Shown here: in pieces, positions 7,654 to 48,369 of the stretch | Numbering within the stretch: the stretch's first letter is position 1 | Layout: each line of letters begins with the position of its first letter | From: a virus | Reading direction: 5' to 3' (one strand) | DNA length: 64,000 bases | IMG/VR virus record: IMGVR_UViG_3300045988_122538 | Translations under genes and position numbers: made by a program | The notes under the pieces: model-generated | The model's database searches: none | The model's input: the letters and a program-made list of their open reading frames with translations, nothing else | Told to the model about the DNA's origin: nothing

Positions 7654-7736
7654 AACTATTAAATTTTGCAAAAATGCTTGACTTTTTCTCCAAAATCGTA
7701 TATAATAATATATGTAGGGACAAGACAATACCTACA
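7654..7736 (+). promoter_or_regulatory. strong sigma-A-type promoter cassette, copy 1, with a 5' leader hairpin
   Basis: A/T-rich UP-like tract. -35 TTGACT at 7678-7683, a 17-nt spacer, and -10 TATAAT at 7701-7706. Leader hairpin TGTAGG(7713-7718)/CCTACA(7731-7736). Roughly 85-90% identical by eye to 20671-20755. Confidence 0.75.
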
Positions 7737-7778
7737 ACATATCAAAAAATCATAGATGTTAAAAAGGAGTAAAAAGTC

Positions 7779-8705
7779 ATGGGCACAAAAATGTTCAAAA
7801 ACAGGGAAACAAATTTCGAGGCAGCTCGCAGAAAGGCTATCGCACGTTGGTCTGATAACATTCCGGTATCTGAAACACCGTTCTACGCAGCACGTTCTCG
7901 CTTCAGGAGTGTAGTAGGTTATGAGCCGTTGTCTTATGAGGAGTGGTTGTCTTTGGATGACCAGTATAAGGCAGCGGCTCTTTTTGTTACCTTCTTCGAC
8001 CAGATCACTCTCGCATGGAGCAAGGCAAAAAGCTTCTACGTTCTCGAGGAGGATGGTGTATCTGAGATGATGAAATATCTCATGAAGAATACACCTCTGA
8101 TCGCTTCTAAGAAAAGCAAATACTCTCCGGCATACATCTACAGAGTGGCATATAACTGCCTGTACTGCATTAGTCGTGATATCAAGCGTGACAGACTGGC
8201 ATATGAAAATAATGTTCCGCAGTATGTTCAGTGCGGCGATGATGTATTGGATCTGTTCGATACTGTATGCGACACTGAGGATATGGACAACACTATCAGC
8301 AAGAAAAAGTTCTGGGCTCTGGTTGACAATCAGGAGTGGGATGTTAAGGCTATGATTGTCAAAATTCTCGAAGGTGGTGCTTTGCCTGCAGGTATCCCGA
8401 TGAAGCGTCGTGCTGAAATTATGGAGGAACTCAAAACTACTTTTGCAGATTATAAGGCACTCTTCTATGGTGAGTCTGAACAGAAACACGAACTGACATT
8501 TGCATATGTACTGCAGAACGACGACAAAATTGCTTCTGCAGTTGTAGAAATGCCGAACGGCGAGTCTGCTGTATATTATGGCCAGAAGCTGTACAGAAAC
8601 AACAAGGTGTACAGAATTGAATTCTTTGGATCTACTCAGGACTATCTGTTTGCAGCTGAGACAGCACGTGGCTTCAAGGTAACCGACATTGAGATGTACA
8701 GATAA
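7779..8705 (+). CDS. putative phage sigma-like transcription factor (otherwise hypothetical)
   Basis: EEDGVSEMMKYLMKN...SPAYIYRVAYNCLYCISRDIKRDR resembles sigma-70 region 2 (DAEDlvQe...WLyrIa.N...D..R). It is transcribed from the consensus promoter at 7678-7706. No clear region-4 HTH was seen. Confidence 0.4.
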   Translation: MGTKMFKNRETNFEAARRKAIARWSDNIPVSETPFYAARSRFRSVVGYEPLSYEEWLSLDDQYKAAALFVTFFDQITLAWSKAKSFYVLEEDGVSEMMKYLMKNTPLIASKKSKYSPAYIYRVAYNCLYCISRDIKRDRLAYENNVPQYVQCGDDVLDLFDTVCDTEDMDNTISKKKFWALVDNQEWDVKAMIVKILEGGALPAGIPMKRRAEIMEELKTTFADYKALFYGESEQKHELTFAYVLQNDDKIASAVVEMPNGESAVYYGQKLYRNNKVYRIEFFGSTQDYLFAAETARGFKVTDIEMYR

Positions 8706-8757
8706 TAGGAGATATAATCTCTGATACATATCTAATCATCAACTAGTCAATAAACAA

Positions 8758-12736: not shown

Positions 12737-13840
12737 ATGTCACAAAAATTTACAGTGAGCACAAAACCGCTGATTGATGGTTTGAATCTTGGTATCTTAA
12801 ATGCTAACATCTCAAACTTCTTTCAGAGAAGCACAATGGCACAAGTAACAGCTAACAAAAACAGTCTTATCATCAACCTTGAAGCTGCATTTATCTATTC
12901 AGAAGTTGAGTTCAAGGGGATGGGTACAGAAGATACATCTTCTACTATATTTGTAAGCAGTTCTCTTCTGAAACAGCTTGTTTCTACATTTGAAGCAAGT
13001 ACAACTACTTTTGAGTTTGATGAAAGTGGTCTCATTTTACATTCAGGTAAATCTAAGTTCACCCTTCCAAAAGTAATTGATGCTGATATGACATTCCAGC
13101 GTCCTGGTAGTTTGTCATCTGATATCATCGACATCAAGAAAGAAGATTGGAAGTTCATCAAGGACTATCAGCTGTATGCTATTGCAATGTCTTTTGTTCA
13201 TCCTGTTTATACAAAGGCTTGGTGCGGTGAGTCTGGTGATGTACTTGTTGGCGATTTTGATATTGGCTTGTTTACGCATTCTAAGAAGGGCAACCTTAGA
13301 CGCACTTGTCTGCTTTCTGATACAATTATCAATCTTATCACATCTCTTCCTGAGGGTGCAAAGATGTATAAAGCTGAAAACAGCTATATTGTACATGTAA
13401 AGACTGATGGATTCACATTTACATCTGAATTTGAACCTAAGTATGAATCTGATGAAGATATGGGCAGTTACAATGCCGATATGATTTTGTCTATCATGAA
13501 TGTAGACGGTGAGTCTGTTAAGGTGAATGTTGCAGCTATCATGAAGATTCTAAATCAGGCTGATTTGCTTTCTACAAAGAGCGAGGATTCTATTAAACTT
13601 TCTGTAAGCACTGGACAGATTACATTCACTGATGTAAATGTAAATTGTTCAATTCCAGCTGAGGGTACTATTACTAATCCATACTCTGTAGAATTCAACA
13701 TTGACTCGCTTAAGAAGGTAATGTCTAATTGTTCTGAAGATGTTGTAAGTATCTTTGCTGCACAGAATGAAGGAGAAGTGTCTGGTATTACAATCTTCAG
13801 CAAGGACTTGATTACATCTATTGCGGCGGTAGAAGAATAA
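12737..13840 (+). CDS. dnaN: DNA polymerase sliding clamp, beta (DnaN)-like
   Basis: 367 aa from ATG 12737 (SD GGAGG at 12725-12729), the same length as bacterial DnaN. It sits next to clamp-loader genes and is highly expression-biased. No strong diagnostic motif is visible by eye. Confidence 0.55.
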   Translation: MSQKFTVSTKPLIDGLNLGILNANISNFFQRSTMAQVTANKNSLIINLEAAFIYSEVEFKGMGTEDTSSTIFVSSSLLKQLVSTFEASTTTFEFDESGLILHSGKSKFTLPKVIDADMTFQRPGSLSSDIIDIKKEDWKFIKDYQLYAIAMSFVHPVYTKAWCGESGDVLVGDFDIGLFTHSKKGNLRRTCLLSDTIINLITSLPEGAKMYKAENSYIVHVKTDGFTFTSEFEPKYESDEDMGSYNADMILSIMNVDGESVKVNVAAIMKILNQADLLSTKSEDSIKLSVSTGQITFTDVNVNCSIPAEGTITNPYSVEFNIDSLKKVMSNCSEDVVSIFAAQNEGEVSGITIFSKDLITSIAAVEE

Positions 13841-14610
13841 TGAGTTTCCAACCATTGAATTTTGCGTCTGTTGCAAAGTTCAATTCGGCAACAAGCAGTG
13901 AATTCCTCTCTTTTTATCAAGATTATGTTCTTCAGAAATTAAGGGAGGACAGCTTGAAGCCGAAAAACAAAACATTTGCTCCTTCAAGTTTTCGATGTGC
14001 TAGAAAATGTTGGTTCAGATTACGTGGTGTCGAAACTGATATGTTAACTAATCCTGATCCAGTATTGAACTTCAAGGCTGAGGTTGGAACAGCACGACAC
14101 GAAATAATTCAATCTAATCTCAAAGAAGCACTTGGAGATGACTGGATTGAAGTACCTGATTATTTAAGCAAGCATCCTATACCATACGAATATACATTGA
14201 CACAGAAAAATCTGGAAACCTTGATAGAAATATCAGATCCTCCAATTCGTTTCGCATGTGATGGTATTATCCGATGGAAAGATAAGATATACTTGCTTGA
14301 AATAAAAACAGCTGACTATGATAGTTGGAACTCATTAACTGACTGGAAGGCTGTACACAAAGATCAAATTCAATGCTATAGCACTCTTTTAGGTCTACCT
14401 CATGTAATCGTTATATATGAGGACAGACAATACGGCGATTTGAAAGTCTATGAAGAGTTTGTCAATCAACTTGAATCCCAAGCTGTATTAGACAGAATGC
14501 ACTATATTCAGGAAATGGTTGAATGTAATCTAGCACCTGACAGAGTTCCTAATGGTGATTACATGTGCAACAATTGTGAATATCGCGTAAAGTGTAAGCA
14601 GTGGGGTTGA
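13840..14610 (+). CDS. Cas4/RecB-family PD-(D/E)XK exonuclease with a 4-Cys (Fe-S) cluster
   Basis: DGIIRW...LLEIKT gives D...ExK. There is one N-terminal Cys (CARKCWF) and a C-terminal CNNCEYRVKC (Cx2Cx5C), as in Cas4/AddB nuclease domains. Confidence 0.75.
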   Translation: MSFQPLNFASVAKFNSATSSEFLSFYQDYVLQKLREDSLKPKNKTFAPSSFRCARKCWFRLRGVETDMLTNPDPVLNFKAEVGTARHEIIQSNLKEALGDDWIEVPDYLSKHPIPYEYTLTQKNLETLIEISDPPIRFACDGIIRWKDKIYLLEIKTADYDSWNSLTDWKAVHKDQIQCYSTLLGLPHVIVIYEDRQYGDLKVYEEFVNQLESQAVLDRMHYIQEMVECNLAPDRVPNGDYMCNNCEYRVKCKQWG

Positions 14611-14629
14611 GAAATCAACCCCATTTTGT
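14603..14629 (+). terminator. rho-independent terminator overlapping the stop codon
   Basis: GGGGTTGA-GAAA-TCAACCCC: an 8-bp GC-rich stem with a GNRA loop, followed by ATTTTGT. Confidence 0.6.
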
Positions 14630-14650
14630 ATAAAAGAAAGGTGTGTTAAA

Positions 14651-15667
14651 ATGTCACTTGCTACAAAATATCGTCCTAAATCATTTTCAGATGTAGTAGA
14701 GCAATCACTTATTGTAGATATGCTCAGTAATATCTGTAAAAGTGATTTGAATAACCGAAATTTCTTATTCATTGGTCCGGCAGGGTGTGGCAAAACTACA
14801 CTTGGTCGAATTGTAGGAAACGTATTGAATAATAATACAGGTGAACCTATTGAAATTGATGCTGCGTCTCATAGTGGTGTAGATAAGATGCGTGATATCA
14901 TTCAGCAAGCACGAACTTACCCTATTGGTTGTGCTTACAAGATATTTATCATTGATGAGTGCCATAGCTTATCGTCACAAGCTTGGCAGGCTCTGCTTAA
15001 GACACTTGAAGAATCTCCAGCAAAAAGTGTTTTTATTTTCTGCACTACAAATCCAGAGAAAATTCCAGCTACAATTTTATCTCGTGTTCAGACATTTCAG
15101 TTGAGTAAGATCAGTCTTGACAGCATCTGTAACAGACTTGTATATGTATTGGATTCTGAAATTGCAGAAGGTAGAGATATAACATATGAGAAAGAAGCTA
15201 TCAACTACATTGCGAAGCTTGCTAATGGCGGTATGCGTGACGCTTTAACATTGCTGGATAAAGCATTGGCGTATAGTACTAACATTTCATCTCATACATT
15301 ATCAAAGGCGCTAGGCCTACCTAACTATGATGATTATTTTATGTTATTGTCTGCTATTGCAAAAAGAGATAATGAAACTATCACAAAGGTAGTTGATGAA
15401 GTTTACAATTCAGGTGTTAACTTTGTGAAATGGTTTGAGAATTTCCATTCATTTGTAATCAACATCGTAAAATATATCTTCCTTCAAGACATCAATAAGA
15501 CAATGATTCCAGCACATTATGCAGATAAGATATCTAAATATAGTACAGCTCATTCTAACATCTGCTTGAAGTTAGCTAATACACTTATCAAATTGAATCA
15601 AGAGTTGAAGTCTACTAACTACCAACAAGAGATTGCACTTACATATTTGTGTAGTCCTAAAAAATAA
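14651..15667 (+). CDS. dnaX: clamp-loader ATPase, DNA polymerase III gamma/tau-like
   Basis: KYRPKSFSDVVEQ, Walker A GPAGCGKTT, Walker B IIDECHSLS and sensor SRVQTFQL. Confidence 0.85.
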   Translation: MSLATKYRPKSFSDVVEQSLIVDMLSNICKSDLNNRNFLFIGPAGCGKTTLGRIVGNVLNNNTGEPIEIDAASHSGVDKMRDIIQQARTYPIGCAYKIFIIDECHSLSSQAWQALLKTLEESPAKSVFIFCTTNPEKIPATILSRVQTFQLSKISLDSICNRLVYVLDSEIAEGRDITYEKEAINYIAKLANGGMRDALTLLDKALAYSTNISSHTLSKALGLPNYDDYFMLLSAIAKRDNETITKVVDEVYNSGVNFVKWFENFHSFVINIVKYIFLQDINKTMIPAHYADKISKYSTAHSNICLKLANTLIKLNQELKSTNYQQEIALTYLCSPKK

Positions 15668-23052: not shown

Positions 23053-23823
23053 ATGAAAGCAATATTTGCATGTAAGCTTTATAAATCAAGTAGACGTAAG
23101 GACAAAATAAAAGCAGCATTACAGAATCCTATAAATGCTGAGCTTGTAGAACAGATAGATGAATATCTAGGTGAAGAATATAGACCTGTAACTAAAATTG
23201 ACGGTGACGTCATGAAAACTGTTCCTAAACATGATAATAAATCAGGTTCATCTAATACACAAACAAGGTCAAGTGGTCATGGTCCTTCAAGTGGTGGACT
23301 AGGTGGTTTAAGTTCTGCATTATCTGGTCTAGACGATGATACTACCATATCGGAAAAATATGGTGACGAATTAGATGATGATGGAAATGCTGCATTTGAT
23401 GCTACTCAGGGTACAAGTTCGTCTGATGATGACACTTCTGATGATAATTCTGATACTACAGCAAATTCAGCTACAGCAGTGAAGAAATCATCTATCGTTG
23501 CTGATACAGTTGTAACTAAACCGTTTGTTGAAACACAAGTTTCCTTAAATGGTCTTGCAGGTGAACTTAAGGGAACATTGAATGCACGGTCATCGACTAC
23601 CGGTGTAAATCGTGTATGCGTAAAGAACAATGAGATATGGATTCATTATAATGATGATATCAATCTTAACAATGTTATGACTGCTGTAATAGACACATTG
23701 AATTCAGCAAATTATCATTACTTGATATTCAATCGTCTAGCAAGAACAGATAATGCAATTGTTTTTACAATCAACGGTAATGATACAGATAATGTGATGG
23801 AGCCGATATCTAATGAAAAATGA
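23053..23823 (+). CDS. hypothetical protein (Gly/Ser- and Asp-rich central low-complexity region)
   Basis: 256-codon ORF with a GAAGGAGG SD, directly behind the promoter at 23000-23028. Confidence 0.6.
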   Translation: MKAIFACKLYKSSRRKDKIKAALQNPINAELVEQIDEYLGEEYRPVTKIDGDVMKTVPKHDNKSGSSNTQTRSSGHGPSSGGLGGLSSALSGLDDDTTISEKYGDELDDDGNAAFDATQGTSSSDDDTSDDNSDTTANSATAVKKSSIVADTVVTKPFVETQVSLNGLAGELKGTLNARSSTTGVNRVCVKNNEIWIHYNDDINLNNVMTAVIDTLNSANYHYLIFNRLARTDNAIVFTINGNDTDNVMEPISNEK

Positions 23824-24845: not shown

Positions 24846-25361
24846 ATGGACGATATCAAAACTGTTGATAGTTCAGAAGTAGTGTATGATCCTGTATACC
24901 AACGACAAAAAGAGGGCGTCACGAAAATGCGTACGTCCTTGTTGGCGTGTACTGCTGAAAACGGTGTTACTATAAGAAACACATTAGATTCAATAACAGC
25001 TATGCGAATATATCATCAGATGATGCGTATAATCAAATATACAGAGTTGATGGATAAGCTTGAAGATAAGCTTTACAGGTCCATTGATAATATGTTAGAT
25101 AACTCTCCCGATGATGAACGAACTCTATTATCACTCTTACATATTCAAGAGCGTTTACAAAAGTCAATGATTGAATCTCATAAATTGATTCAGCCATATC
25201 TTGATATAAAAGAGTTTTCAGTTGTTGATCTTGTACCTCAAGAGTCTACAGCTGCTTCTAGTACTCAGTTTAACATGAAGTCTGAGGATCGTGATAGATT
25301 GCGTTCTAATGCTCAACAAGTTCTACTTCAATTAAAGGAAGGTGGGCTAGTTGCAAAATAA
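24846..25361 (+). CDS. hypothetical protein; small terminase candidate by position only
   Basis: 171 aa, immediately upstream of TerL and overlapping it. GGAGGTG SD. No motif support. Confidence 0.3.
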   Translation: MDDIKTVDSSEVVYDPVYQRQKEGVTKMRTSLLACTAENGVTIRNTLDSITAMRIYHQMMRIIKYTELMDKLEDKLYRSIDNMLDNSPDDERTLLSLLHIQERLQKSMIESHKLIQPYLDIKEFSVVDLVPQESTAASSTQFNMKSEDRDRLRSNAQQVLLQLKEGGLVAK

Positions 25362-27306
25362 CATCACAGATCTATCGCTACCTGAAAGAATTCAAAAGAT
25401 ATTTTCGAGCTGTAATGAAGTAGAACAGTCATACTTGCTTCAAATTCTAGAAGAATTGAGTGAGTCGGATTGTGGATACTCTAAAACATATGAAGACATA
25501 TGGTTATCTGATTACAAAGAGATACCAGTAGACATTGACACATTCTTAGATTCTGAAACATATCTAGGAAAAACTAACAGATGCGGTAAGGCTGTATTTC
25601 CATTTTGGCGTACAGAGTTGAGGAACTTCTTCAATGCTGGTAATCAATTTCATGAATGGATTCTAACAGGAGCTACTCGTATTGGTAAATCATCTACTGG
25701 TATATCAGCAACATCATACATGTTGTATAGATTGATGTGTTTGCGAGATCCTCAAAAATACTTCAATAAGAAAGACGTATCTAAGTTTTCTATACTGTTT
25801 TTCAACATTACAAAAGACTTGGCAAAGGGTGTAGCTTATCGTGAATTCAATGATACATTGAAAGCAAGCCCTTGGTTCAATGCACACGGAACCTTTTCTA
25901 GTAGTGAAAGAGATTTCTACTATATACCAGAGGGTGGAAAGATAATCATAGATTATGGTTCAGACGCTTCACATGGTCTAGGACAACAGGTATTTGTTGG
26001 GTTCATGGATGAGTGTAACTTCAGCAAAGCAGGTGTTAAAGACGTTAACAAAGCAAAATCACATATGAAAGAAACTTACAACACAATATCAGCCCGTGTT
26101 AAAGGTACATTTAAGCATGGTGGTGAAGTATTCGGAAAGATATTCGCTGTAAGCTCTAAACGTAGTGATAGTGATTTCATGGAAGCTTATGTGCAAGAGC
26201 AGTTAGATGCTGGTGCAGGCGATCATATGTATATATCTGATGCACCTCAGTGGGAAGTACTTCCTAAAGATACATTTGCAAGTGAAACATTCTACATTGC
26301 AGTTGGTGACAGATATCATAAGGGTTTTGTAGTACCTGATAATCAATGTTTTCCTGAAGCACTTGATGATTTACGAAAGCAAGGTTATAAAATACTGGAA
26401 CCACCAGTTGATATGAAATCTGATTTCTTAGCTGACTTTGAGATTGCATTGAGAGATCTTGCTGGTATTGCAGTAACAGGTGCATTGTCTTTCATAACAC
26501 AAGCAGCTATAACTCCTTGTATTTCTAAGACTCGAAAAAATCCTTTCTATTCTGATATTTTAGAAATTGGTACAAAGGATAATTTCAGTATCGAAGAATT
26601 TTTCCATATGAAAGAAGTTCCACCTGAACTCAAACGAATACCTATATTTATACATCTTGACTTGTCACTTACTACTGACCGAACAGGTATATCAGGCGGT
26701 GGTATAACAGGTCGTAAAGATATTGTAAATAAGGATGGTGCTAAAGTATCAATGCCGTTCTTATCGCATCTGTTTTCAGTAGCTATTCAAGCTCCAAGAG
26801 GTGATAAGATTGCATATGGTAAAATAGTTGCATTTATATGTTGGTTGCGTAAATCTGGATTCCATATTGAGCGTATAAGTCGAGATCAATTTCAAAGTGA
26901 ATATCTTGCACAAGAGCTTGAACAAAAGGGCTTCACAGTAGATAAGATATCACTTGATAGAACGTCAGACGGATACACAGCATTACGTTCTGTATTGTTA
27001 GAAGAGCGTATAGATCAACTTGATCATAAACTTCTACAAGATGAACTTGTACATCTACAGCGAGATAGTGTAACTGATAGAGTAGACCACCCTGCCGGCG
27101 GTAGTAAGGATGTTGCTGATAGTCATGCAGGTTGGGTATGGAACGCAATACGTCATAATCCAGGAATTACTATTCCAGCTAAAAAGGTTGTATCAGCAAT
27201 AGCAGCTGTCAACCAAAATACTAATCGTCAACGTGGGGCAACTCTTCCGAGTATGTTCCCTGGATTGAATACAATCAATACGTCTAAAAACAAATTCAAA
27301 CGATGA
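25351..27306 (+). CDS. terL: terminase large subunit
   Basis: Walker A LTGATRIGKSSTG and Walker B VGFMDECNF. C-terminal nuclease-type acidic motifs IHLDLSLTTDRTG and DHPAGGSKDVADS. TTG start after GGTGG. Confidence 0.85.
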   Translation: MQNNITDLSLPERIQKIFSSCNEVEQSYLLQILEELSESDCGYSKTYEDIWLSDYKEIPVDIDTFLDSETYLGKTNRCGKAVFPFWRTELRNFFNAGNQFHEWILTGATRIGKSSTGISATSYMLYRLMCLRDPQKYFNKKDVSKFSILFFNITKDLAKGVAYREFNDTLKASPWFNAHGTFSSSERDFYYIPEGGKIIIDYGSDASHGLGQQVFVGFMDECNFSKAGVKDVNKAKSHMKETYNTISARVKGTFKHGGEVFGKIFAVSSKRSDSDFMEAYVQEQLDAGAGDHMYISDAPQWEVLPKDTFASETFYIAVGDRYHKGFVVPDNQCFPEALDDLRKQGYKILEPPVDMKSDFLADFEIALRDLAGIAVTGALSFITQAAITPCISKTRKNPFYSDILEIGTKDNFSIEEFFHMKEVPPELKRIPIFIHLDLSLTTDRTGISGGGITGRKDIVNKDGAKVSMPFLSHLFSVAIQAPRGDKIAYGKIVAFICWLRKSGFHIERISRDQFQSEYLAQELEQKGFTVDKISLDRTSDGYTALRSVLLEERIDQLDHKLLQDELVHLQRDSVTDRVDHPAGGSKDVADSHAGWVWNAIRHNPGITIPAKKVVSAIAAVNQNTNRQRGATLPSMFPGLNTINTSKNKFKR

Positions 27307-28892
27307 AAGGTATGATTACTATGAAAATGAGAAACCTTCTCAAACCCGGAGATTTTGTAACCTTAGTTCCTGCTGGTATACACATTACACTTCAGTACAA
27401 TGCTGAAGGTAATCTTGAAAAAGTATACACAGGATTTCAGTCAGATAGGGTTGACTGTTCTAATGAATTGCGTACTTTATTGGTTCAGAATCATACAGTA
27501 CCAGGTACTGTGCACATCAAAAGAGGTACAAGTTGGGTACGTGGTGTGCTATATACAAATGCTGTACAAAATGCACCTGGCAAGCTTCCAGCTTGTATTC
27601 AACAGTCATTGATGAAATTGTATCATTCAAATCCGTCGCAATTCAATTTCTTTGCAGCTACATTTGAAAGTACAATGACTGATTTCAAAGGAGCTACTCC
27701 TACTCGTCATGCACTGTCTATGTCAAAGTTTAAGCTGCTGCCAGGTTGGCTTGTTCCTGGTAATGTTACAGATAATTTGACTGACACATGGGTAAATAGC
27801 CCACAGTTTACGTTCAATAAGATAGTAACTGATTACATTATCTTTCACAGAGGCAAAGTGAATTATCTATCTGCTAATTCTTCACAGTTCATTGTCAATA
27901 AAGTAGTTAGATATACAGACGATAATGGATATGTTAAGGGTAGAATTTATCAAGACGTAAAAAGTCCTATCAGTGTTGATTATTCTGATATTGTACGTTT
28001 TGATATACAGCCTAATACACTAGTTGTATTAGATTCCGAAAATCAGATAATGCTTACTAAACCTACTGATAATAAAAAGCGTGATAAAAGATCTCGTACT
28101 ATTACTTGTAAGTATTGTGGTAAGTCTTATCAATCACCTTTATTTGGTACAGTTCAATGCCCAGATACACATTGCGTATCAAAGATGCTTCCTAATATCA
28201 GACAGTTCTTATCAAAACTGAATTTAACAGTTCCATCTAATGAAGAAATTCATAAGTGGTTAGAAGATAAAACTATCCTGTGTATACCCGATATCTTATT
28301 ACTTCCAGATTATCAACATTTGCAGATAGAGGTATCATTATCATCTCTATTACGTGCAATAGTACCAATTTCTGCTGTTCCTAGAGATGATATATTTGTT
28401 CTGTTTGCAAATGCATGCACAAACAATGCTAGAACAATGCGTTATTATGTTACTAATCCTGCACTCATTACTGCAGATTTAGGGCTAAATCATGCTGATT
28501 TGCCGAAATTGCTAAATTGGTTCAACGATAATTGCAATGCATCTGATGTTCAATCTTTACTAGATGCACCTCAATTCATTTTCAAGGACAAAGATAAACG
28601 TTTTGACGGACCGCCTATCTTCCGTAACAAAGTAATCTTCTTGACTGGTGATTTTATAAGAGGTAATTTTGCTGAAATCTCAGCTATCCTCCAAAGTTAT
28701 TCAGCAAGAGTAACTCTACAATTCACAGATGATGTTCATTGTGTACTTATTGGTGGTAAGCATGAAAACATTGACGGTAGAGCAATCAATGCTGCACACA
28801 ATTTAGGTATATCTGTTATGCAAGAAGAGGATTTCTTCAAGTATTATCAAATTGATGAAGACCTCAAAGCGAACCTTGTATATAAACAGTAA
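27303..28892 (+). CDS. LigA-like protein lacking ligase catalytic residues (NTase-like, C4 zinc finger, BRCT)
   Basis: LVPAGIHITLQYNAEGNLEKVYTGFQSD...WVRGVLYT parallels LigA KLDGLA...TRGDG...VRGEV, but without the Lys, RGDG or Glu. Zinc finger CKYCGKSYQSPLFGTVQCPDTHC. BRCT-like VIFLTGDFIRGNFAEISAILQSYSARV...VLIGG...LGISVMQEEDFF. Confidence 0.6.
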   Translation: MKGMITMKMRNLLKPGDFVTLVPAGIHITLQYNAEGNLEKVYTGFQSDRVDCSNELRTLLVQNHTVPGTVHIKRGTSWVRGVLYTNAVQNAPGKLPACIQQSLMKLYHSNPSQFNFFAATFESTMTDFKGATPTRHALSMSKFKLLPGWLVPGNVTDNLTDTWVNSPQFTFNKIVTDYIIFHRGKVNYLSANSSQFIVNKVVRYTDDNGYVKGRIYQDVKSPISVDYSDIVRFDIQPNTLVVLDSENQIMLTKPTDNKKRDKRSRTITCKYCGKSYQSPLFGTVQCPDTHCVSKMLPNIRQFLSKLNLTVPSNEEIHKWLEDKTILCIPDILLLPDYQHLQIEVSLSSLLRAIVPISAVPRDDIFVLFANACTNNARTMRYYVTNPALITADLGLNHADLPKLLNWFNDNCNASDVQSLLDAPQFIFKDKDKRFDGPPIFRNKVIFLTGDFIRGNFAEISAILQSYSARVTLQFTDDVHCVLIGGKHENIDGRAINAAHNLGISVMQEEDFFKYYQIDEDLKANLVYKQ

Positions 28893-28904: not shown

Positions 28905-30395
28905 ATGTCAAGAATTGTTGATAGATTGTTAAGACGTGGTAAGAAGTACAACAAGACAGTATCGTGGCTCCGTAATGTTACATCAGGATCATTCCTGAAA
29001 ATGTCAGATTTACGTGGTGCTACAAGTATTGATGATATAAAGACTAAAATTGATACAATGCGTGCTTTAGCAAAGGATTCTCAGATAAGCACAGCATTGT
29101 CGTATTATGCTACAGATGCTACTACAACAAATACGAAGGGTCAAATTATATGGGCAGATTCTAAAGATAAGAATTGTGCAAACATTATAAATGGACTTTT
29201 CAAACGATGGAATGTAAATATGTATGTTCGAGATCATATACTTGAACTTGCTACTATTGGTAATTTCTATATGCCAACTACTTGGATGTATAATGCACCT
29301 TCTAAACAAACCATTCATGTTGGAGTAGGGCTTGATAACAATACTATCCCTGATGATAAGTATGACATTATTCCAGCTTATATGATACCACCTGAAGATA
29401 TTATTCATATTTGGTATCAAGGTAAGCCACAAGGTTATATTTATCAGCCTGAGGATGGTGTACAAGACTATATTTCATATCCTGAGGATGCTGTTATACA
29501 CTTCTCATTAGGCGGATTATTAGGTGAGTATACAATTGATACTCGTAATTCTGACGGTGATGAAGAAACATTTGATATTCAATTTGCTGAACCTCTTATG
29601 AGTAATGCCGTATCTCCTACACAGACATTAAGTTTGTTGGAGGACTCATTGTTGTTAGCTTCTTTGATAAGAACTATTAAGTTCATAAATGTAGATTGTC
29701 AAGACGCTGAGGAAGAAGAAGTTCAAGATATACTTCAGCGTATGAAGGATATTGTTGAACAGCAGATTTCTATAAATACTGCTACAGGTGATGCTCAAAG
29801 TTTCGTCAATCCACAAAGTCCTAACAATCTTGTTTACTTAGCAAAGGTAAACGGAAATGATGCTATATCTGTAACTGATCTTAACATGGCAGAAGCTACT
29901 GAAGCTGATAATAAATTGCTTGATTACTATCAGAACAAGAAGCTATCTGTACTCGGTGTTCCAAAGGAAGCGATGAACTTCTCTTCTGCAGAGGGTCTAG
30001 GTAATGCAGGTACTGTAATGTCACAGCGTTCTGCTCTTTATGCTAACATCTTAAATCGTCTTATGACTGCATATAAAGAGGGATGGCGTACAGCTCTTAA
30101 TGCTTATTTCAAAGTAAACGGTTACAGCGGATATGTTGATAACTTTGAACTTCACATGAATCCTATAGTTACAACACAGTCTACTGTACAATTTGAAAAG
30201 CGAGATGCTGCATTGAACCAAGCAACTACACTTGTACAGCTACTCAGAGATACAGGAGTTAGTCATAAAGAAGCTTATACAATAGCACTTACTGAGATAC
30301 TTTCAGAGGTATTTCCTCAGATTGGTTCTGATATACCTACTTGGGACATAGCTTCAGAAGCAACAGGAGAAGGAGGCGGCGATGATGTTCTCTAA
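28905..30395 (+). CDS. putative portal protein
   Basis: About 496 aa, in the packaging operon downstream of TerL, with an acidic C-terminus. AGGAG at 28892-28896 supports ATG 28905. The call is positional and size-based. Confidence 0.5.
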   Translation: MSRIVDRLLRRGKKYNKTVSWLRNVTSGSFLKMSDLRGATSIDDIKTKIDTMRALAKDSQISTALSYYATDATTTNTKGQIIWADSKDKNCANIINGLFKRWNVNMYVRDHILELATIGNFYMPTTWMYNAPSKQTIHVGVGLDNNTIPDDKYDIIPAYMIPPEDIIHIWYQGKPQGYIYQPEDGVQDYISYPEDAVIHFSLGGLLGEYTIDTRNSDGDEETFDIQFAEPLMSNAVSPTQTLSLLEDSLLLASLIRTIKFINVDCQDAEEEEVQDILQRMKDIVEQQISINTATGDAQSFVNPQSPNNLVYLAKVNGNDAISVTDLNMAEATEADNKLLDYYQNKKLSVLGVPKEAMNFSSAEGLGNAGTVMSQRSALYANILNRLMTAYKEGWRTALNAYFKVNGYSGYVDNFELHMNPIVTTQSTVQFEKRDAALNQATTLVQLLRDTGVSHKEAYTIALTEILSEVFPQIGSDIPTWDIASEATGEGGGDDVL

Positions 30396-30747: not shown

Positions 30748-31333
30748 CATCTCAGATTGGCATCAGTTATCTGATGCCAAATCTAATAATAGTAGAGATT
30801 TGAGTATCTCTGTTTCTGATATCATACAGGATGCTAGGCTTACTGGACTTAGAATTCAATTAAATCATACTCAATTTGGTGTGCTATTTGCTTGTGTATT
30901 GAACGCACAGGGTAGTATGGTTACAGAATTCAATGAAAATCTTGTTGTTGAATTTACTACAAAACAGATTCTTGCTGAGCTTAAGAAATACGGTTTCTTG
31001 ATTACGTTTGAACCTAGGGCACATCTTCCCGGTAATCAGATTCAATATCTAATGACATTAAAGGGACTAGGCTATGATAAGCTCAGAATAATGAATGTTT
31101 ATAAGTACAACATTCAAGGAACAAAACAATTTCAGTGGTATGTTATAGCATTCAATATTCATGATGAAAATTGGCTTAATAATGGATATTCAATTTCAGA
31201 GACTGAATTCATGAAAGCTCTTAAAGATGGTAGATGCATAAATATATCTGCTATTAGTAAGACTCAAAGATGGTCATGGAGTTGGTTAGACTATGTAGCT
31301 AACATTGATGACATATTGGAGGATAACGCATGA
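30722..31333 (+). CDS. hypothetical protein
   Basis: GGTGGTGA at 30709-30716 supports ATG 30722. The track start TTG 30689 has no SD. Confidence 0.55.
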   Translation: MLSQPLQYNISDWHQLSDAKSNNSRDLSISVSDIIQDARLTGLRIQLNHTQFGVLFACVLNAQGSMVTEFNENLVVEFTTKQILAELKKYGFLITFEPRAHLPGNQIQYLMTLKGLGYDKLRIMNVYKYNIQGTKQFQWYVIAFNIHDENWLNNGYSISETEFMKALKDGRCINISAISKTQRWSWSWLDYVANIDDILEDNA

Positions 31334-31572
31334 GAGATAAGTTCAACAAAGAGCATGTATTGAGTTTGTGCAAACCTGGTGACTATGGTATAATGGCACC
31401 GCCTATGGATGCTCAAGTTGCATTGCAGGAATTGTGTCGATACTTTTTAGGTAAAGATTGGTATGATAGTTCTGGTGCAAGTAATCCAGAGCAGGTAAAC
31501 ACAGCAATTGTTGCTGAAATTGAGATGAATTACAGAGGTGCTAAATTAAAGCGTAAAGTAGTATATGAATGA
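31330..31572 (+). CDS. hypothetical protein
   Basis: 80-codon ORF with GGAGG 8 nt upstream. Confidence 0.5.
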   Translation: MRDKFNKEHVLSLCKPGDYGIMAPPMDAQVALQELCRYFLGKDWYDSSGASNPEQVNTAIVAEIEMNYRGAKLKRKVVYE

Positions 31573-32778: not shown

Positions 32779-33033
32779 ATGATTTATAAAAATTTGTCAT
32801 TCACCACAAAAACTTTTTATGGTGTGACATTCAAGCCTGGCGAAGAGCATGAAGTGCCTGGTTATATCAACCATCCAAAGTTTTTGAGATTGACGGCCTT
32901 CTCTGCCAAACATGATGATCAGAAAAATCCTGAGAAGGATACTAAATCTGAATCTTCTAAGAAAACTACAACGTCGTCTAAGACAACGACTAAAAAGGAG
33001 GTAAATTTAGATGGCGCAAATAACAATCAATGA
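32779..33033 (+). CDS. hypothetical protein (Lys/Ser/Thr-rich C-terminus)
   Basis: GAGGTGA at 32767-32773 supports ATG 32779. Overlaps the sheath start. Confidence 0.5.
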   Translation: MIYKNLSFTTKTFYGVTFKPGEEHEVPGYINHPKFLRLTAFSAKHDDQKNPEKDTKSESSKKTTTSSKTTTKKEVNLDGANNNQ

Positions 33034-35104
33034 GATCAGTCAGAATTACACATATAATATCGGCAGTAACGCTTTTGCTACTGTAGCATTGCCTATTACT
33101 GCTATGTGGGGTCCTGCATATATGGAGCCTACTACAATGGGTGTAACTAAAGACGAGATGCTCGAGATGACTACATGGAATCATTTTCCAGCTACTCAGT
33201 CTGGATTAGAGTCTTTTGTAGCTACTTACAGAGGTCCTGCATCAAATTTCAGAATGTACAATGATTATTCTTACCAGATGGCGATGACATTGCTTACAGC
33301 TGGTTATGACGTACTCGTATGTCGCGTGTGCCCAGGTACACTTGCTCAAGGTACATTGATTATCGATTCTGGAATGAATACTCCTCTTGCAGTGTCTGCA
33401 AAGTATCCTGGAACTTTTGGTAATCAGATCAGAGTTACACTTAAGAAGGTTACAAAGAAAGAATATGACTCTGTCAAAAAGACATATGTTGAACTTCCAT
33501 ATTACTGGAATGCTATTGTATATGTTTGTGATTCATCTGGAGTTCAGACTGCTGTAGAAAATCTGATATTTGTATTTGATATCAATAATTCTACAGATAA
33601 CATTCCGCACATCAGTGAAGTTGAATCTAAATTTATCACTTTTGCATATGATAACATTACATCAGACAATCAAAATCCGGCTGATGACTTGTCTTGTTAT
33701 TTAGCTGGTGGTACAGATAACATCAATTCGGTAACTTCAAAAGTTCCTACAGATGCTGTAAAGGGTGTCTACAACGGTCAGGAAAAATGGTTTACACCTA
33801 TCTACAAAGAACCAGCTAATTGGAATACTGTATATACTGATACAGTTACTTTTGTAGGGTATGCTGATGCAACTAATGAACCTACATTTGTAACAACATC
33901 AGCTGGTTCTCAAGGTAAGGCTCCTGAATTCCGAGAAGGTGTTTATTACAATAAACTTGAAGTAGATGTATCTAATGAATTCTCGACAGAATTAACAAAA
34001 ATTGCAGTGATCCGTTATGGTGATGAGAAGGCTAATTATGTTGTTCAGTTGAAGAACGCTGCTGCTAATATTTCAGATATTACAAAGCTTACTTCTTTCT
34101 ATCACATGGAATGGATCTATAATGCTGCTTGTGATGTTTATGATCTGCTTAAGGATAAGCTCAATTATAATCCACAGCGTATTATCAGCCCAGGTTGGGA
34201 TGATCAGGATTACTTGAAGCTTACAGGTGATTATGGTACTGTTTTCCAAGTATCTCCTATTCACCAGAAAATCCTTGAAGTTTCATATTACAGTAGATGT
34301 GCTGCTGGTATGATCGACATCCCTCGTTCGTGTCCAAGACGTCTTGTGTACAATGATGATGTTGAAAATCCTGGATATGCTCAGATGCTGTCTCGCAATG
34401 AAGTACCAGCAGGCGGTAATGATGTAAACGCTGTATTGTTCAATACACATTGTGCATTGTTTGCACCTTGGGGTCAGTATAAGTATGTAGGTATGGGTAA
34501 GCAATGTATTGCTCCTCCTGCTTTACTTGCATTACTGATTCAACGAGCAATGATTCTAAATCAATCTTTGCAGTATGAATGGGCTCTTCCTACAAACAGA
34601 ACTCATAATCTAAACATCGGAAAGATGGATTATAAGGTTCCGAAGAAGCTGCTTGATATTTGGCAGAAGCTTGAAGGTGTAGGTGTAAACGTAATCACCG
34701 AGATTCCAGAACTTGGTTTAAGTATCTGGGGCAACTCTACATTATATGAAGTACCACCTGCAACTTATCAGGCACTTGCAAATCTATCTACTCGTTTCCT
34801 TGTAAATGCTGTAGAAGATATCGCATATAAGTGCGGTCTTGCTATCACATTCCAGTACAATAATGAACAAGCATACAATAAGTTCTATGCTGGTGTTACA
34901 CCAACTCTTGATACTATGAAGAATGTCGGTGCTATTGATGACTATTATGTCAAGATGGCTGCTGATATCAATGGTCTTGATCAAGTGAATGCTAACACAG
35001 TAATTGGTAAGATTTATCTTGTCATCAACGGTGTTATCAATGACATTATCATTGATCTTATTGCTCTCCCGCCTGGGACAGATCTAAATCAGTACAGATC
35101 ATAA
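33011..35104 (+). CDS. tail sheath protein
   Basis: 697 aa. The N-terminus MAQITINEISQNYTYNIGSNAFATVALPITAMWGP follows the sheath pattern (T4 gp18-like ...ALAGKFQWGP). A tube-sized gene follows. Expression-biased codons. Confidence 0.75.
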   Translation: MAQITINEISQNYTYNIGSNAFATVALPITAMWGPAYMEPTTMGVTKDEMLEMTTWNHFPATQSGLESFVATYRGPASNFRMYNDYSYQMAMTLLTAGYDVLVCRVCPGTLAQGTLIIDSGMNTPLAVSAKYPGTFGNQIRVTLKKVTKKEYDSVKKTYVELPYYWNAIVYVCDSSGVQTAVENLIFVFDINNSTDNIPHISEVESKFITFAYDNITSDNQNPADDLSCYLAGGTDNINSVTSKVPTDAVKGVYNGQEKWFTPIYKEPANWNTVYTDTVTFVGYADATNEPTFVTTSAGSQGKAPEFREGVYYNKLEVDVSNEFSTELTKIAVIRYGDEKANYVVQLKNAAANISDITKLTSFYHMEWIYNAACDVYDLLKDKLNYNPQRIISPGWDDQDYLKLTGDYGTVFQVSPIHQKILEVSYYSRCAAGMIDIPRSCPRRLVYNDDVENPGYAQMLSRNEVPAGGNDVNAVLFNTHCALFAPWGQYKYVGMGKQCIAPPALLALLIQRAMILNQSLQYEWALPTNRTHNLNIGKMDYKVPKKLLDIWQKLEGVGVNVITEIPELGLSIWGNSTLYEVPPATYQALANLSTRFLVNAVEDIAYKCGLAITFQYNNEQAYNKFYAGVTPTLDTMKNVGAIDDYYVKMAADINGLDQVNANTVIGKIYLVINGVINDIIIDLIALPPGTDLNQYRS

Positions 35105-35220: not shown

Positions 35221-35766
35221 ATGTTTACTCCTTTACAGATGGGTACAAACCACATGTTAGGCATAGATAACTACGTACCTCTTACAACAAATAACTTTGA
35301 AGTAAGAATCTACAACATGGACGGGTCTGCACCTACAGAGTTTTCAGATGTATTAACTTTATCTACAGATGAAGTTGGTTCTATTTCTGAGTCTCAAGAT
35401 ATCATTACTATTCACTACGGTAATGGTGTTATTAAGTTCCCAAGTAAGGTTGACTTCGCTGAAACTGATTGGACACTCAATTGTTTCTGTGAGCCTAACG
35501 TCATTGAAAATCTTCGTGCTTGGAGACGACTGGTCTATGATCCAGATACTCAGAAGATGGGATTACCGTCACAGTACATGAAGCAAGTATACTTCATTAA
35601 GTATGACGGACAAGGTAATGTTCGAGATGTTATCAAATGCCCCGGCACTTGGATTGGTGCACTTGATAATGGTGGTGGTAGTCAGTCTGGCGGTGATGTC
35701 GTTAAGGTTAAGGTACCATTCATCATTTCAAGAGCTATCTATCTCAAGCCTGAGGACTTACGATAA
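35221..35766 (+). CDS. tail tube protein
   Basis: 181 aa, immediately downstream of the sheath. Size and position are typical. Confidence 0.6.
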   Translation: MFTPLQMGTNHMLGIDNYVPLTTNNFEVRIYNMDGSAPTEFSDVLTLSTDEVGSISESQDIITIHYGNGVIKFPSKVDFAETDWTLNCFCEPNVIENLRAWRRLVYDPDTQKMGLPSQYMKQVYFIKYDGQGNVRDVIKCPGTWIGALDNGGGSQSGGDVVKVKVPFIISRAIYLKPEDLR

Positions 35767-47814: not shown

Positions 47815-48369
47815 ATGGCAATCTATAAGAAACTTTCTTATTCAATACTTACAAGATCAGCTACTAACATACTAGTTCCATACATATCTAATGACCAAGA
47901 TGATTGGTACAAAGTATATGGTGGTTATCATACAGGTTTAGATATAGAAGGGTCAGAAATATACTCATTCCAATCCGGTGTCGTTACTCAGATTGGTGAT
48001 ATGGGAAATGGCCTATGTTCTGTTGTTATTCAATATACCGCTAAAACATCCCTCAGATATGCAAATATGTCTAGTACTTGCATACATGAGGGTGATGTTA
48101 TACGTCAAGGTCAAATGATAGGTGTTGCTAAGAAGTTTGTGCATTTTGAATACCTAACTTCTGAAAAAGAAGATTCTATGTGGCCCGTAAGAGTAGGATC
48201 TAATACTTATTTCAAACACAACCCTGAATTACTTATTGATGGAACAGTTAAACTAGATGCTAATGACTGGTCGCAGATTCAAAGAGCTGATACAACTAGT
48301 ATACCATATGCACTCAGAGAGTCACAGAAATCTGAATTTGGTGTTAATGGTAAGGAGGATTCTGAATAA
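47815..48369 (+). CDS. M23 family metallopeptidase
   Basis: YHTGLDIEG (HxxxD) and VHFEY (the HxH-position His). Confidence 0.8.
   Translation: MAIYKKLSYSILTRSATNILVPYISNDQDDWYKVYGGYHTGLDIEGSEIYSFQSGVVTQIGDMGNGLCSVVIQYTAKTSLRYANMSSTCIHEGDVIRQGQMIGVAKKFVHFEYLTSEKEDSMWPVRVGSNTYFKHNPELLIDGTVKLDANDWSQIQRADTTSIPYALRESQKSEFGVNGKEDSE

Follow-up and report, generated by a model that had tools for sequence, protein, structure and literature searches.

A predicted catalytically dead LigA homologue encoded between the large terminase and portal genes of uncultured myophages

The locus considered here, within a window of 64,000 nucleotides of viral DNA (IMG/VR record IMGVR_UViG_3300045988_122538), raises the question of why a gene resembling that of a bacterial NAD+-dependent DNA ligase (LigA) should lie between the genes for the large terminase (TerL) and the portal protein, and of what its product, referred to below as the pseudo-ligase, may still be able to do. 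The genes concerned, in window coordinates, are:

24846 to 25361, + strand: 171-aa ORF, conserved and all-helical, that overlaps the start of TerL; candidate by position for the small terminase (TerS)
25351 to 27306, + strand: large terminase TerL, 651 aa, directly upstream of the pseudo-ligase gene (tblastn and PHROG terL matches)
27303 to 28892, + strand: LigA-derived pseudoenzyme gene (longest ORF, 529 codons plus stop)
28905 to 30395, + strand: T4-like portal protein, directly downstream (PF07230, Portal_T4, E 4.9e-13)

A sequence-only reading had described a 529-aa ORF at 27303-28892 that overlaps the TerL stop codon, ends 12 nt before the portal gene and belongs to the packaging operon. 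All of these features are present and the assignment to a TerL-portal operon is borne out, with a correction of the start codon. The first ATG of the ORF is the one that overlaps the TerL stop (ATGA, 27303-27306), but because the start residue is equivalent to M7 in 65 of the 68 aligned homologues, the true start is probably ATG 27321, giving a product of 523 aa. This ATG is 14 nt past the TerL stop and is preceded by GAAAGG at 27305-27310, and the gene remains operonic even with the start so moved. Between its TAA (28890-28892) and the portal ATG at 28905 there are 12 nt, which include GGAG; the gene is co-oriented with the late structural genes, and no terminator-like site is present on the + strand between 23800 and 33200. 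TerL is 30-36% identical to annotated large terminases over about 90% of its length (tblastn); the TerL proteins of relatives house homing endonucleases and inteins. A small terminase is an oligomeric DNA-recognition protein of about 100-200 aa that is usually encoded just upstream of TerL. No convincing TerS had been visible in the sequence-only reading, but at every locus examined the start of TerL is overlapped by the 171-aa ORF (164-185 aa across loci), which has 320 homologues and is a TerS candidate by position. In its AF2 model (pLDDT 66) residues 16-33, 40-86, 91-128 and 146-165 are helical; it has no fold or profile match in PDB, Pfam or PHROG, and TerS profiles match none of the ORFs of the packaging module.

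Comparison of the family profile of the pseudo-ligase with nine diverse LigAs by hhalign gave a probability of 99.2% and an E value of 1.6e-19 over 483 aligned columns, with residues 11-516 of the query spanning residues 103-670 of Escherichia coli LigA. The AF2 model of the pseudo-ligase (pLDDT 90.1) matched full-length LigA entries of the PDB with Foldseek E values of 3e-19 to 1e-10 over about 500 aligned columns, entries containing the adenylation domain only being found at about 1e-4; a structure search of BFVD gave the same ranking, with two family members at a TM of about 0.75. Judged from profile alignment and predicted model, the colinearity with LigA is far above chance, and it upholds the earlier view of a protein colinear with LigA minus domain Ia. 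The order of the domains (NTase-like, OB-like, Cys4 zinc finger, helical domain derived from the HhH domain, BRCT) is kept, but domain Ia, the NMN-binding domain needed for the reaction with NAD+, is absent: the first LigA residue in the alignment is 103, the NTase-like domain has only about 10 residues ahead of it, and the homologues start at M7. The NTase and HhH regions are also shorter than those of LigA, by about 80 and 27 residues, respectively. Among Pfam profiles, PF00533 (BRCT) matches 61 of 68 members (best E 2.2e-9), whereas PF01653 (adenylation) and PF03120 (OB), which had been named beside it as profiles to search with, gave no match to the family at E<=0.1. Residues are numbered here from the first codon of the 529-codon ORF, and the parts of the protein are:

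27324 to 27818, + strand: shrunken NTase-like domain, aa 8-172, compared with about 247 aa in E. coli LigA (motif mapping, census)
27819 to 28064, + strand: remnant of motifs IV and V, then an OB-like beta domain, aa 173-254 (motif mapping; model strands 175-254)
28098 to 28184, + strand: Cys4 zinc finger, C269, C272, C286 and C291 (HMM match to LigA 399-473)
28188 to 28568, + strand: helical domain from LigA HhH, aa 296-422 (hhalign colinearity; nine model helices)
28569 to 28622, + strand: conserved basic pre-BRCT linker, aa 423-440 (conservation census)
28623 to 28850, + strand: BRCT domain, aa 441-516 (Pfam PF00533, profile match, conservation)
28851 to 28889, + strand: conserved acidic C-terminal tail, with I517, D518 and D520 (conservation census)

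The NTase and OB region also matches ATP-dependent ligases and poxvirus A22 in Foldseek. The zinc finger and C-terminal BRCT domain that had been proposed by eye are confirmed: C269, C272, C286 and C291 align with C408, C411, C426 and C432 of LigA and are invariant in the 68 aligned sequences (about 303 of 307 in the larger census), and the BRCT part has a profile match to the LigA BRCT domain 1l7b (E 2.3e-4).

The catalytic residues were followed in a motif census of 307 unique family sequences. The adenylated lysine of motif I, K115 of E. coli LigA, corresponds to a gap or V22 and is V, I, L, M or A across the family, with no lysine among the 307 sequences; D117 is replaced by A24 (V/I/L/A), and G118 is the sole residue of KxDG to be retained, G25 and G81 being invariant structural glycines. 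The arginine of RGDG, R136, becomes T43 (T/L/I), the motif III glutamate, E173, a gap or V82 (V/I), R200 becomes V88 and is variable, D285 becomes T176 (T/S/M/A), K290 becomes F181 (F/Y), and K314 a gap or Q195 (Q). R208 and R277 were also mapped, and the residues of motifs IIIa, IV and V are lost as well. The replacements are mostly hydrophobic or polar, while the nine diverse LigAs and the phage's own LigA keep these residues, the exceptions being K290 in two sequences and R208 and R277 in the phage's own. The earlier statement that the KxDG lysine, RGDG and the motif III glutamate are replaced thus extends to further motifs, and its motif equivalences (KxDG to VPAG, RGDG to TGFQ, RGE to RGV) agree with the profile alignment within one residue. 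Since domain Ia and all of the residues for adenylation and nick sealing are gone, the protein is predicted to be unable to ligate; the sequences strongly support its being catalytically dead, and it is almost certainly an inactive homologue of LigA. Ligation in this phage appears from its motifs to be served by a separate enzyme. A 125.5-kb contig of the same phage encodes both the pseudo-ligase (99% identity) and a 638-aa LigA with near-complete catalytic motifs, in which the K, D, G, R, E, D and K motif residues and the Cys4 site are intact and only the R208, R277 and K290 positions are not aligned to the canonical residue. Both proteins are also present in phage ctgN495 (BFVD).

The sequence-only reading had expected a protein that binds nicks, ends or DNA without sealing them. 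The residues through which LigA contacts DNA are, however, gone: R333, T334 and R379 of the OB domain are replaced, and the hairpin glycines of the HhH domain, G455, G489, G521 and G553, correspond to S312, I342, N374 and N396, although this is a region of low identity in which the mapping relies on hhalign. Within the helical domain, aa 296-422, no glycine is conserved, but four acidic residues are (D330, D392, D409 and D415); neither this domain nor the OB domain has a conserved basic residue, and the median pI is 4.9 for the helical domain and 4.7 for the BRCT domain, both of them acidic. Nick binding is therefore unsupported, and recognition of nicks in the manner of LigA is very doubtful at best; direct DNA binding of any kind has a somewhat less than even chance. 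What basic conservation there is lies elsewhere, 6 of the 10 conserved basic positions being at the zinc finger, which is flanked by K274 and K294, and at the pre-BRCT linker (conserved residues K432, R433, F434, G436, P438, I439 and F440), with the conserved R441 and K443 falling just within the BRCT part. In the 2OWO complex of LigA, the zinc finger and the pre-BRCT linker face the DNA. The linker, the BRCT domain and the tail, which adjoins the conserved Y515 at the BRCT end, have a mean pairwise identity of 47-55%, compared with 28-38% for the other domains. A phosphate-binding BRCT pocket consists of S/T-G in the beta1-alpha1 loop and T/S-x-K at the start of alpha2 (PMC10386641). The first of these motifs is present as the invariant T448-G449, but at the position of the lysine of the second (K635 of LigA) the family has a variable D, S, T or N, so that only half of the pocket is kept.

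The family comprises 256 clusters at 50% identity (E<=1e-30), of which the top 150 are all 507-554 aa long. The pseudo-ligase gene is directly 5' of the portal gene in 73 of 73 IMG/VR loci, with portals that are 55-99% identical, the C-terminal part of TerL ends less than 400 nt upstream of it in 68 of 69 related loci, and the intergenic gaps are 5-53 nt across five independently fetched loci. The gene has a fixed place in the TerL-X-portal string of a large, uncultured clade of myophages, whose portals are of the T4-like kind and whose contigs measure about 100-250 kb. The breadth of the clusters, together with the invariant structural glycines and Cys4 site, indicates at the sequence level that the whole ligase-derived fold is under purifying selection. 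In the closest cultured relative, Bacillus phage vB_BceM-HSE3 (TerL 36% identical), the portal gene starts at 34124, just after the end of TerL at 34092; as the two are adjacent there, the pseudo-ligase is an add-on and not a universal part of the module. In agreement with the earlier impression, the literature searched held no description of a pseudo-ligase in a head-packaging operon.

The best explanation of these observations, to which we assign a probability of about one in two, is that the pseudo-ligase is a non-catalytic accessory of the packaging or portal machinery. In the broad sense, gene order makes it probable that the protein has a function in the virion, in head assembly or in packaging, and suggests that a ligase fold has been recruited to work non-enzymatically in the assembly of heads or the packaging of DNA. 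As a counterpoint, the structural operons of phages also host unrelated cargo genes. The protein would be made late, with TerL and the portal. Because conservation is highest in the linker, BRCT domain and tail, these most likely form its business end, which might dock a partner such as TerL, the portal or a phosphate-bearing ligand, for example, a DNA 5'-phosphate end, and the zinc-stabilised ligase body would provide either a rigid scaffold or a clasp for duplex DNA, evolved anew and blind to nicks. In a more specific form of this proposal, which we regard as improbable, the pseudo-ligase would be a third integral component of the motor, a LigA-derived ring or clasp holding duplex DNA or a 5'-phosphate end at the TerL-portal junction, with DNA loading, prevention of slippage, or retention or marking of genome ends as possible functions; if true, it would represent a new class of terminase/portal accessory exapted from a repair enzyme. 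The versions that involve DNA handling are weakened by the loss of the canonical DNA contacts and by the acidity of the helical and BRCT domains.

The same losses fit a pure protein scaffold, a minor head protein or ejected internal protein that binds the portal or the capsid interior with no specific DNA contact and that may be packaged and released on infection, comparable to the portal-adjacent minor head proteins of other phages. That the best conserved elements, the BRCT domain and a short acidic tail, are typical of protein docking also favors a scaffold, as does the strict adjacency to the portal gene, but a need for a docking module alone would hardly explain the five domains and invariant zinc finger that are kept in >250 diverged clusters, and the conserved Lys/Arg cluster lies in the regions that face DNA in LigA; we consider this reading possible, though unlikely. 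If the pseudo-ligase were the DNA-recognition subunit that guides TerL to the site where packaging starts, in place of the small terminase or together with it, this would account for the lack of a TerS profile match in the module and for a gene that abuts TerL and derives from that of a DNA-binding enzyme. The product is, however, a monomer-sized protein of 523 aa and five domains, encoded downstream of TerL and deprived of the DNA contacts of LigA; the position and size expected of a TerS are those of the 171-aa ORF, and vB_BceM-HSE3 packages its DNA without a pseudo-ligase. A TerS function is accordingly very unlikely.

Two further readings place the protein outside the motor. It might be an anti-defence or host-takeover factor, for which the late-operon position is incidental, such as a mimic that titrates a host partner of the BRCT domain or body of LigA. 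Counter-defence genes are usually patchy and mobile, whereas this one has a single fixed position with short gaps in all 73 loci, next to portals down to 55% identity, and is co-oriented with late structural genes without an intervening terminator; moreover, the residues of the NAD/AMP pocket are now hydrophobic and the protein therefore cannot sequester NAD-derived signals. Although pseudoenzymes are often decoys, the gene counts as an insertion when the closest cultured relative is the reference, and LigA BRCT domains mediate protein contacts, as is reported for the LigA of Mycobacterium tuberculosis with XthA (PMC7530888), we find this quite unlikely; the decoy suggested earlier finds no support, given the strict TerL/portal linkage and the phage's possession of its own LigA. 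The protein might, on the other hand, still be an enzyme, active in ligation, other nucleotidyl transfer or end modification through relocated residues. Migrated catalytic residues are described for some pseudoenzymes in a review (PMC10211241), and K40, in the strand following the motif I position, is conserved in 91% of members, but the N-terminal 250 residues contain no invariant Lys, Asp, Glu or Arg, and the positions lining the pocket are now V/I/L, F/Y or T/S/M/A. With domain Ia absent, the NTase domain so reduced and a LigA with near-complete catalytic motifs already encoded by the phage, retained catalysis is hardly credible.

The packaging motor of a tailed phage is believed to require nothing beyond TerS, TerL and the portal; that a fourth gene is fixed between TerL and portal in hundreds of diverged phages, none of them with a close relative in culture, suggests an unstudied accessory function. 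To our knowledge, there are only two cases in which a whole DNA ligase has been turned into a non-enzyme in a virus, the pseudo-ligase and poxvirus A20/A22. The retention of the zinc, HhH-derived and BRCT modules makes the family a natural experiment on a ligase scaffold that is free of chemistry. It should also be noted that automated annotation names some members "DNA ligase" (for example, BFVD A0A8S5UEV8), a label that is wrong for this family and that inflates counts of phage-encoded ligases.

The closest known system is LigA itself (E. coli 2OWO, Thermus filiformis 1DGS and the LigAs of phages), in which the NTase, OB, Cys4, helical and BRCT domains are homologous and have the same order; the pseudo-ligase retains the cysteines of the zinc finger and the structural glycines in motifs I and III, as well as Thr-Gly in the BRCT domain. 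Unlike LigA, it is without domain Ia, the catalytic motifs, the HhH glycines and the OB arginines, is encoded in a packaging operon instead of with replication genes, and coexists with a real LigA. The T5-like split NAD+-dependent ligase of PR1 (heterodimeric, 9HU3/9I5I) is likewise a rearranged phage derivative of LigA, and both of its subunits are structural matches, but the entry titles describe it as a DNA ligase with nicked DNA, whereas in the pseudo-ligase the chain is intact and the chemistry is gone. The middle domain of the DNA polymerase processivity factors A20 (vaccinia) and A22 (monkeypox virus) has been described as "an inactive DNA ligase" (PMC11142717), and these proteins offer a precedent for the pseudo-ligase, which they resemble in using an inactive ligase fold (NTase and OB) as a structural part of a viral DNA machine; A22 (8wpf_B) is a structural match at E 2e-6 in Foldseek, and poxvirus processivity factors are also matched in BFVD. 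However, in A20/A22 the NTase and OB domains are flanked by D4- and E9-binding domains with no zinc finger, HhH or BRCT domain, and the proteins act in replication in eukaryotic viruses; the match is far weaker than that to LigA, and the resemblance is an analogy and not a specific relationship. A parallel in concept only is provided by catalytically inactive DNA ligase IV, which is reported to act structurally in NHEJ (PMC9638927, PMC10858965): there, a DNA-end complex is supported noncatalytically by a ligase body that has BRCT domains, but that enzyme is ATP-dependent and eukaryotic, was inactivated by engineered mutations instead of being fixed in nature as a pseudoenzyme, and has no link to packaging. 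What is new beyond the sequence-only reading is that the DNA contacts are also lost, that a separate LigA is encoded in the genome, and that the gene is strictly linked to that of the portal.

The ORF at 27303..28892 is real, and the identities that the sequence-only reading gave to its neighbors, the large terminase (TerL) upstream and the portal downstream, are supported by sequence matches. At the 5' end, the first ATG shares the sequence ATGA with the stop codon of the 651-aa ORF before it; at the 3' end, a 12-nt spacer that includes GGAG separates the TAA from the neighboring gene, which starts at ATG 28905. The true start is probably ATG 27321, which lies 14 nt past the TerL stop and has GAAAGG ahead of it at 27305-27310, because 65 of 68 aligned homologues begin at the residue equivalent to M7. 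A scan of the window found no terminator-like site on the + strand between 23800 and 33200, and the TerL, pseudo-ligase, and portal genes therefore look co-transcribed; sites found in a promoter scan were no more numerous than in shuffled sequence. With the ATGA overlap or 14-nt spacing and the 12-nt gap to the portal, the gene belongs to the packaging operon, as proposed.

Features of the window and of flanking contigs of the same phage
24846..25361: 171-aa ORF overlapping the TerL start, candidate small terminase (TerS) by size and position
Directly upstream of the pseudo-ligase: 651-aa ORF, TerL (30-36% identity to annotated TerLs over ~90% of length; PHROG terL matches)
27303..28892, + strand: pseudo-ligase ORF, 529 codons, TAA at 28890-28892
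From ATG 28905, directly downstream of the pseudo-ligase: T4-type portal (PF07230, E 4.9e-13)
33011-35104: sheath
35221-35766: tube
48369-50081 and 50094-52277: lysin-domain proteins of the tail region (Amidase_2; CHAP plus phage tail lysozyme)
60760-62241: T4 gp23-like major capsid protein (PF07068)
62743-63453: gp13-like neck protein (PF26809)
L018 (contig downstream of the window) 13760-14803: CW_7 amidase
L022 (contig IMGVR_UViG_3300045988_101827) 3313-5241, - strand: 638-aa LigA, matched end to end by the LigA profile (E 8.2e-87)

The pseudo-ligase is a homologue of LigA over its whole length. The query alone gives a borderline BRCT match (PF00533, E 3.4e-4) and weak PHROG ligase matches, and a profile of 68 family members matches the LigA structures 1DGS (E 1.5e-6) and 2OWO (E 8.5e-6) in two colinear pieces, the zinc finger with the first HhH and then the BRCT domain. 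A set of E. coli LigA homologues was rejected as the source of a diverse profile, since it held only enterobacterial LigAs of at least 89% identity; because of this lack of diversity the reference set was rebuilt from eight phage LigAs, obtained by tblastn, which with E. coli LigA make nine diverse sequences. In profile-profile comparison (hhalign) the family aligns with these nine over 483 columns with a probability of 99.2% (E 1.6e-19), query residues 11-516 corresponding to 103-670 of E. coli LigA. An AlphaFold2 model of the query, made on the family alignment, has a mean pLDDT of 90.1 and a pTM of 0.69, and its top Foldseek matches are to LigA structures of full length (E 3e-19 to 1e-10, ~500 columns), followed by the NTase and OB domains of the PR1 phage ligase and of ASFV, T4, and other ATP-dependent ligases. 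These matches, and those to LigA entries with the adenylation domain only (E ~1e-4), indicate that the N-terminal half is ligase-like too and not the C-terminal half alone. Domain Ia is absent and the NTase-like part (residues 8-172) is ~80 residues shorter than that of E. coli LigA, so that the earlier description of the protein as LigA minus domain Ia is upheld by both the profile and the structural comparison. Among the Pfam models BRCT is matched, and the catalytic ones are not.

The residues of ligase chemistry are replaced. All nine reference LigAs have the Lys of motifs I and V, the Glu of motif III, and the Asp of motif IV, and none of these is found at the corresponding positions of the query.

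Equivalents of E. coli LigA residues, read through the hhalign alignment
K115: query, gap beside V22; family, never K
D117: query A24; family V/I/L
R136: query T43; family mainly T/L/I
E173: query, gap beside V82; family V/I
R200: query V88; family variable
R208: query S102; family variable
R277: query Q168; family variable
D285: query T176; family T/S/M/A
K290: query F181; family F/Y
K314: query, gap beside Q195; family mainly Q

In a census of 307 unique family sequences, drawn from protein searches and 73 independent IMG/VR loci, the motif I position is never Lys (Val in 192, Ile in 50, Leu in 23, Met in 17, Ala in 9) and the adjoining P23 is present in 300 of 300 ungapped sequences; Val or Ile stands at the E173 position, Phe or Tyr at that of K290, and Gln at that of K314. 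Over residues 1-250 the family alignments contain no invariant charged residue (Lys, Arg, Asp, or Glu). Two glycines with a structural role in LigA, G118 and G172, correspond to G25 and G81 of the query and are invariant, as are the four zinc cysteines; in the census the Cys4 set is kept in ~303 of 307 sequences and the BRCT T448-G449 pair in ~300 of 307. The claim that the adenylatable Lys, the RGDG Arg, and the motif III Glu are all lost is therefore correct, and the pseudo-ligase, with its entire family, is on the evidence of these substitutions catalytically dead. Nucleotide binding is also unlikely, as the pocket positions are now hydrophobic.

The same reading expected the protein to bind nicks, ends, or DNA, and here the residues point the other way. 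The residues with which LigA reportedly contacts DNA, as listed from mutational work of the Shuman laboratory, are not retained in the OB domain (R333, T334, R379), and the HhH hairpin glycines G455, G489, G521, and G553, which 6-8 of the 9 reference LigAs share, map to S312, I342, N374, and N396 of the query, positions that are never Gly in the family. Independently of the alignment to LigA, neither the OB-like region (173-254) nor the helical one (296-422) has a Gly or basic residue conserved at ≥75%, and the helical one has four conserved acidic residues. The ten conserved basic positions of the pseudo-ligase lie in the NTase-like domain (R10, K40, R49, R135), on either side of the zinc finger (K274, K294), and at the junction with the BRCT domain (K432, R433, R441, K443). 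Judged from sequence, then, the ligase fold is kept and both the chemistry and the known grip on nicked DNA are lost, which argues against nick recognition in the manner of LigA; any DNA binding would need re-evolved surfaces. Per-domain net charge and pI were rejected as a criterion, as they do not discriminate, LigA itself being acidic.

Conservation is greatest in the linker, BRCT domain, and C-terminal tail, where mean pairwise identity is 47-55% as opposed to 28-38% elsewhere, and the tail has conserved Y515, I517, D518, and D520. Of the classical phosphate pocket, as defined in PMC10386641, the family BRCT domain retains the Ser/Thr-Gly half but has lost the Thr/Ser-x-Lys half, and its median pI is 4.7 (acidic) compared with 8.2 in the LigA set.

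The family is large. A word-indexed search returned 101 full-length homologues with 31-98% identity, and an exhaustive search of representatives gave 256 clusters (50% identity) at E ≤1e-30, the best 150 matches being all family members of 507-554 aa; among 134 further matches at E 1e-30 to 1e-10 there might be transitional forms with an intact KxDG. No relative was found among 50,697 GenBank phage records. BFVD contains two members, from uncultured human-virome phages (TM ~0.75), labeled "BRCT domain-containing protein" and "DNA ligase." The second label, carried by A0A8S5UEV8 (Siphoviridae sp. ctX5W26), is wrong given that the family is catalytically dead: although homologous to LigA, the pseudo-ligase fails its defining features (domain Ia, motifs I and III-V, the HhH glycines, and the Pfam catalytic models) and should not carry a ligase annotation.

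Five loci fetched independently, on contigs of 101-139 kb and with 32-48% identity to the query, all have the order 164-185-aa ORF, TerL, pseudo-ligase, T4-like portal; the intergenic gaps are 5-53 nt, and neck and sheath genes come next. TerL in these loci may be intact, carry an intein, or be split by a homing-endonuclease gene: one relative (L002 4750-7947) has a 1065-aa TerL with an intein (PF14890), and in another (L014 6487-9995) a 368-aa NUMOD3 homing-endonuclease gene divides it into 308-aa and 440-aa parts; the 651-aa TerL of the window is uninterrupted. A portal-profile fetch gave 80 IMG/VR loci, on contigs of up to 253 kb and with portals 55-99% identical, and the pseudo-ligase directly precedes the portal in all 73 that have enough upstream sequence; in 68 of 69 the C-terminal part of TerL ends <400 nt before the pseudo-ligase. 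In Bacillus phage vB_BceM-HSE3, the closest cultured relative by TerL (36% identity), TerL (end 34092) and portal (start 34124) are directly adjacent, so the pseudo-ligase is an addition specific to its clade and not a universal component of the module.

Other genes were noted in passing. The major capsid and gp13-like neck genes lie ~30 kb downstream of the portal, and since sheath, tube, and tail genes intervene, the head genes form two separate blocks. The Amidase_2, CHAP/tail lysozyme, and CW_7 amidase domains point to a Gram-positive (Firmicutes) host. Just upstream of the left end of the window, ENA contig k119_35040 (L016 1-1985) has genes for QueC, a QueD-like PTPS, a radical-SAM QueE-like protein, and GTP cyclohydrolase I, a cluster that suggests 7-deazaguanine modification of the phage DNA. 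An 80-aa ORF at 31330-31572 is equated, by position alone, with one in a relative (L013 14000-14242) that has a precomputed Pfam match to Tad8 (PF25189), and a 230-aa ORF at L014 20227-20919 has one to Tad3 (PF25185). ORFs of 356 aa (7659-8729, - strand) and 308 aa (7779-8705, + strand) overlap almost fully; the gene called in relatives is the latter, which has no Pfam match. A 256-aa protein at 23053-23823, ~1 kb upstream of the candidate TerS ORF with four small ORFs between, has a long acidic low-complexity center rich in Ser, Asp, Thr, and Gly and no Pfam or PHROG match, and could be scaffold-like or internal.

The window has no other LigA-like gene, but an outward walk from its genes leads to 125-kb contigs carrying the same phage, in which a separate LigA of 638 aa lies at least 30 kb upstream of the left end of the window, on a contig that also carries the pseudo-ligase (99% identity). 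In this LigA motifs I (AKLDG), III (VRGE), IV (IDG), and V (AFKF), RGDG, and Cys4 are intact; by MAFFT the positions of R208, R277, and K290 are Asn, a gap, and Thr. The same pairing occurs in phage ctgN495 in BFVD. A recent duplication of this gene was rejected as the origin of the pseudo-ligase, as BLASTP finds no similarity between the two (best E 2.4) and the family profile scores the phage's own LigA worst of ten (E 0.036).

These data show a protein under purifying selection and fixed between TerL and portal, alongside a separate LigA. We favor the reading that it is a late protein acting as a non-catalytic accessory of the packaging or portal machinery. The conserved basic linker, BRCT domain, and acidic tail would form its docking end, which would bind TerL, the portal, or a ligand carrying a phosphate, for example the 5' end of DNA, and the zinc-stabilized body may serve as a scaffold or as a DNA clasp evolved anew. 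Since all five domains are retained, the architecture of the ligase as a whole presumably matters.

Among the alternatives, a head or ejection protein that binds proteins only is somewhat unlikely and an anti-defense factor improbable. Substitution for TerS, akin to the DNA-recognition partner for TerL that the sequence-only reading suggested when it saw no convincing TerS, is less probable still: every locus has the 171-aa ORF at the TerL start (47-52% identity in the five loci, and 320 homologues), which takes away the main reason to think that the pseudo-ligase must stand in for TerS. The model of the 171-aa protein is helical throughout, with helices 40-86 and 91-128 in a long hairpin, and has a pLDDT of only 66; the protein has no sequence match in PDB, Pfam, or PHROG and, at that pLDDT, no fold match in Foldseek, but its size and position make TerS a plausible assignment. 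That the pseudo-ligase is a cryptic enzyme is very improbable. Part of the earlier interpretation is convincingly corrected, and the family is a solid, widespread oddity that so far touches no open question of long standing.

The full-text literature searched yielded no account of a pseudoenzyme derived from LigA in the packaging module of a phage, in keeping with the earlier statement that none was known from a head-packaging operon. The closest functional analogy is with the middle domain of the poxvirus processivity factor A20/A22, an inactive ligase consisting of NTase and OB domains (PMC11142717), which is also a structural match to the query. A looser analogy is with ligase IV, which when catalytically dead has a structural part in end joining.
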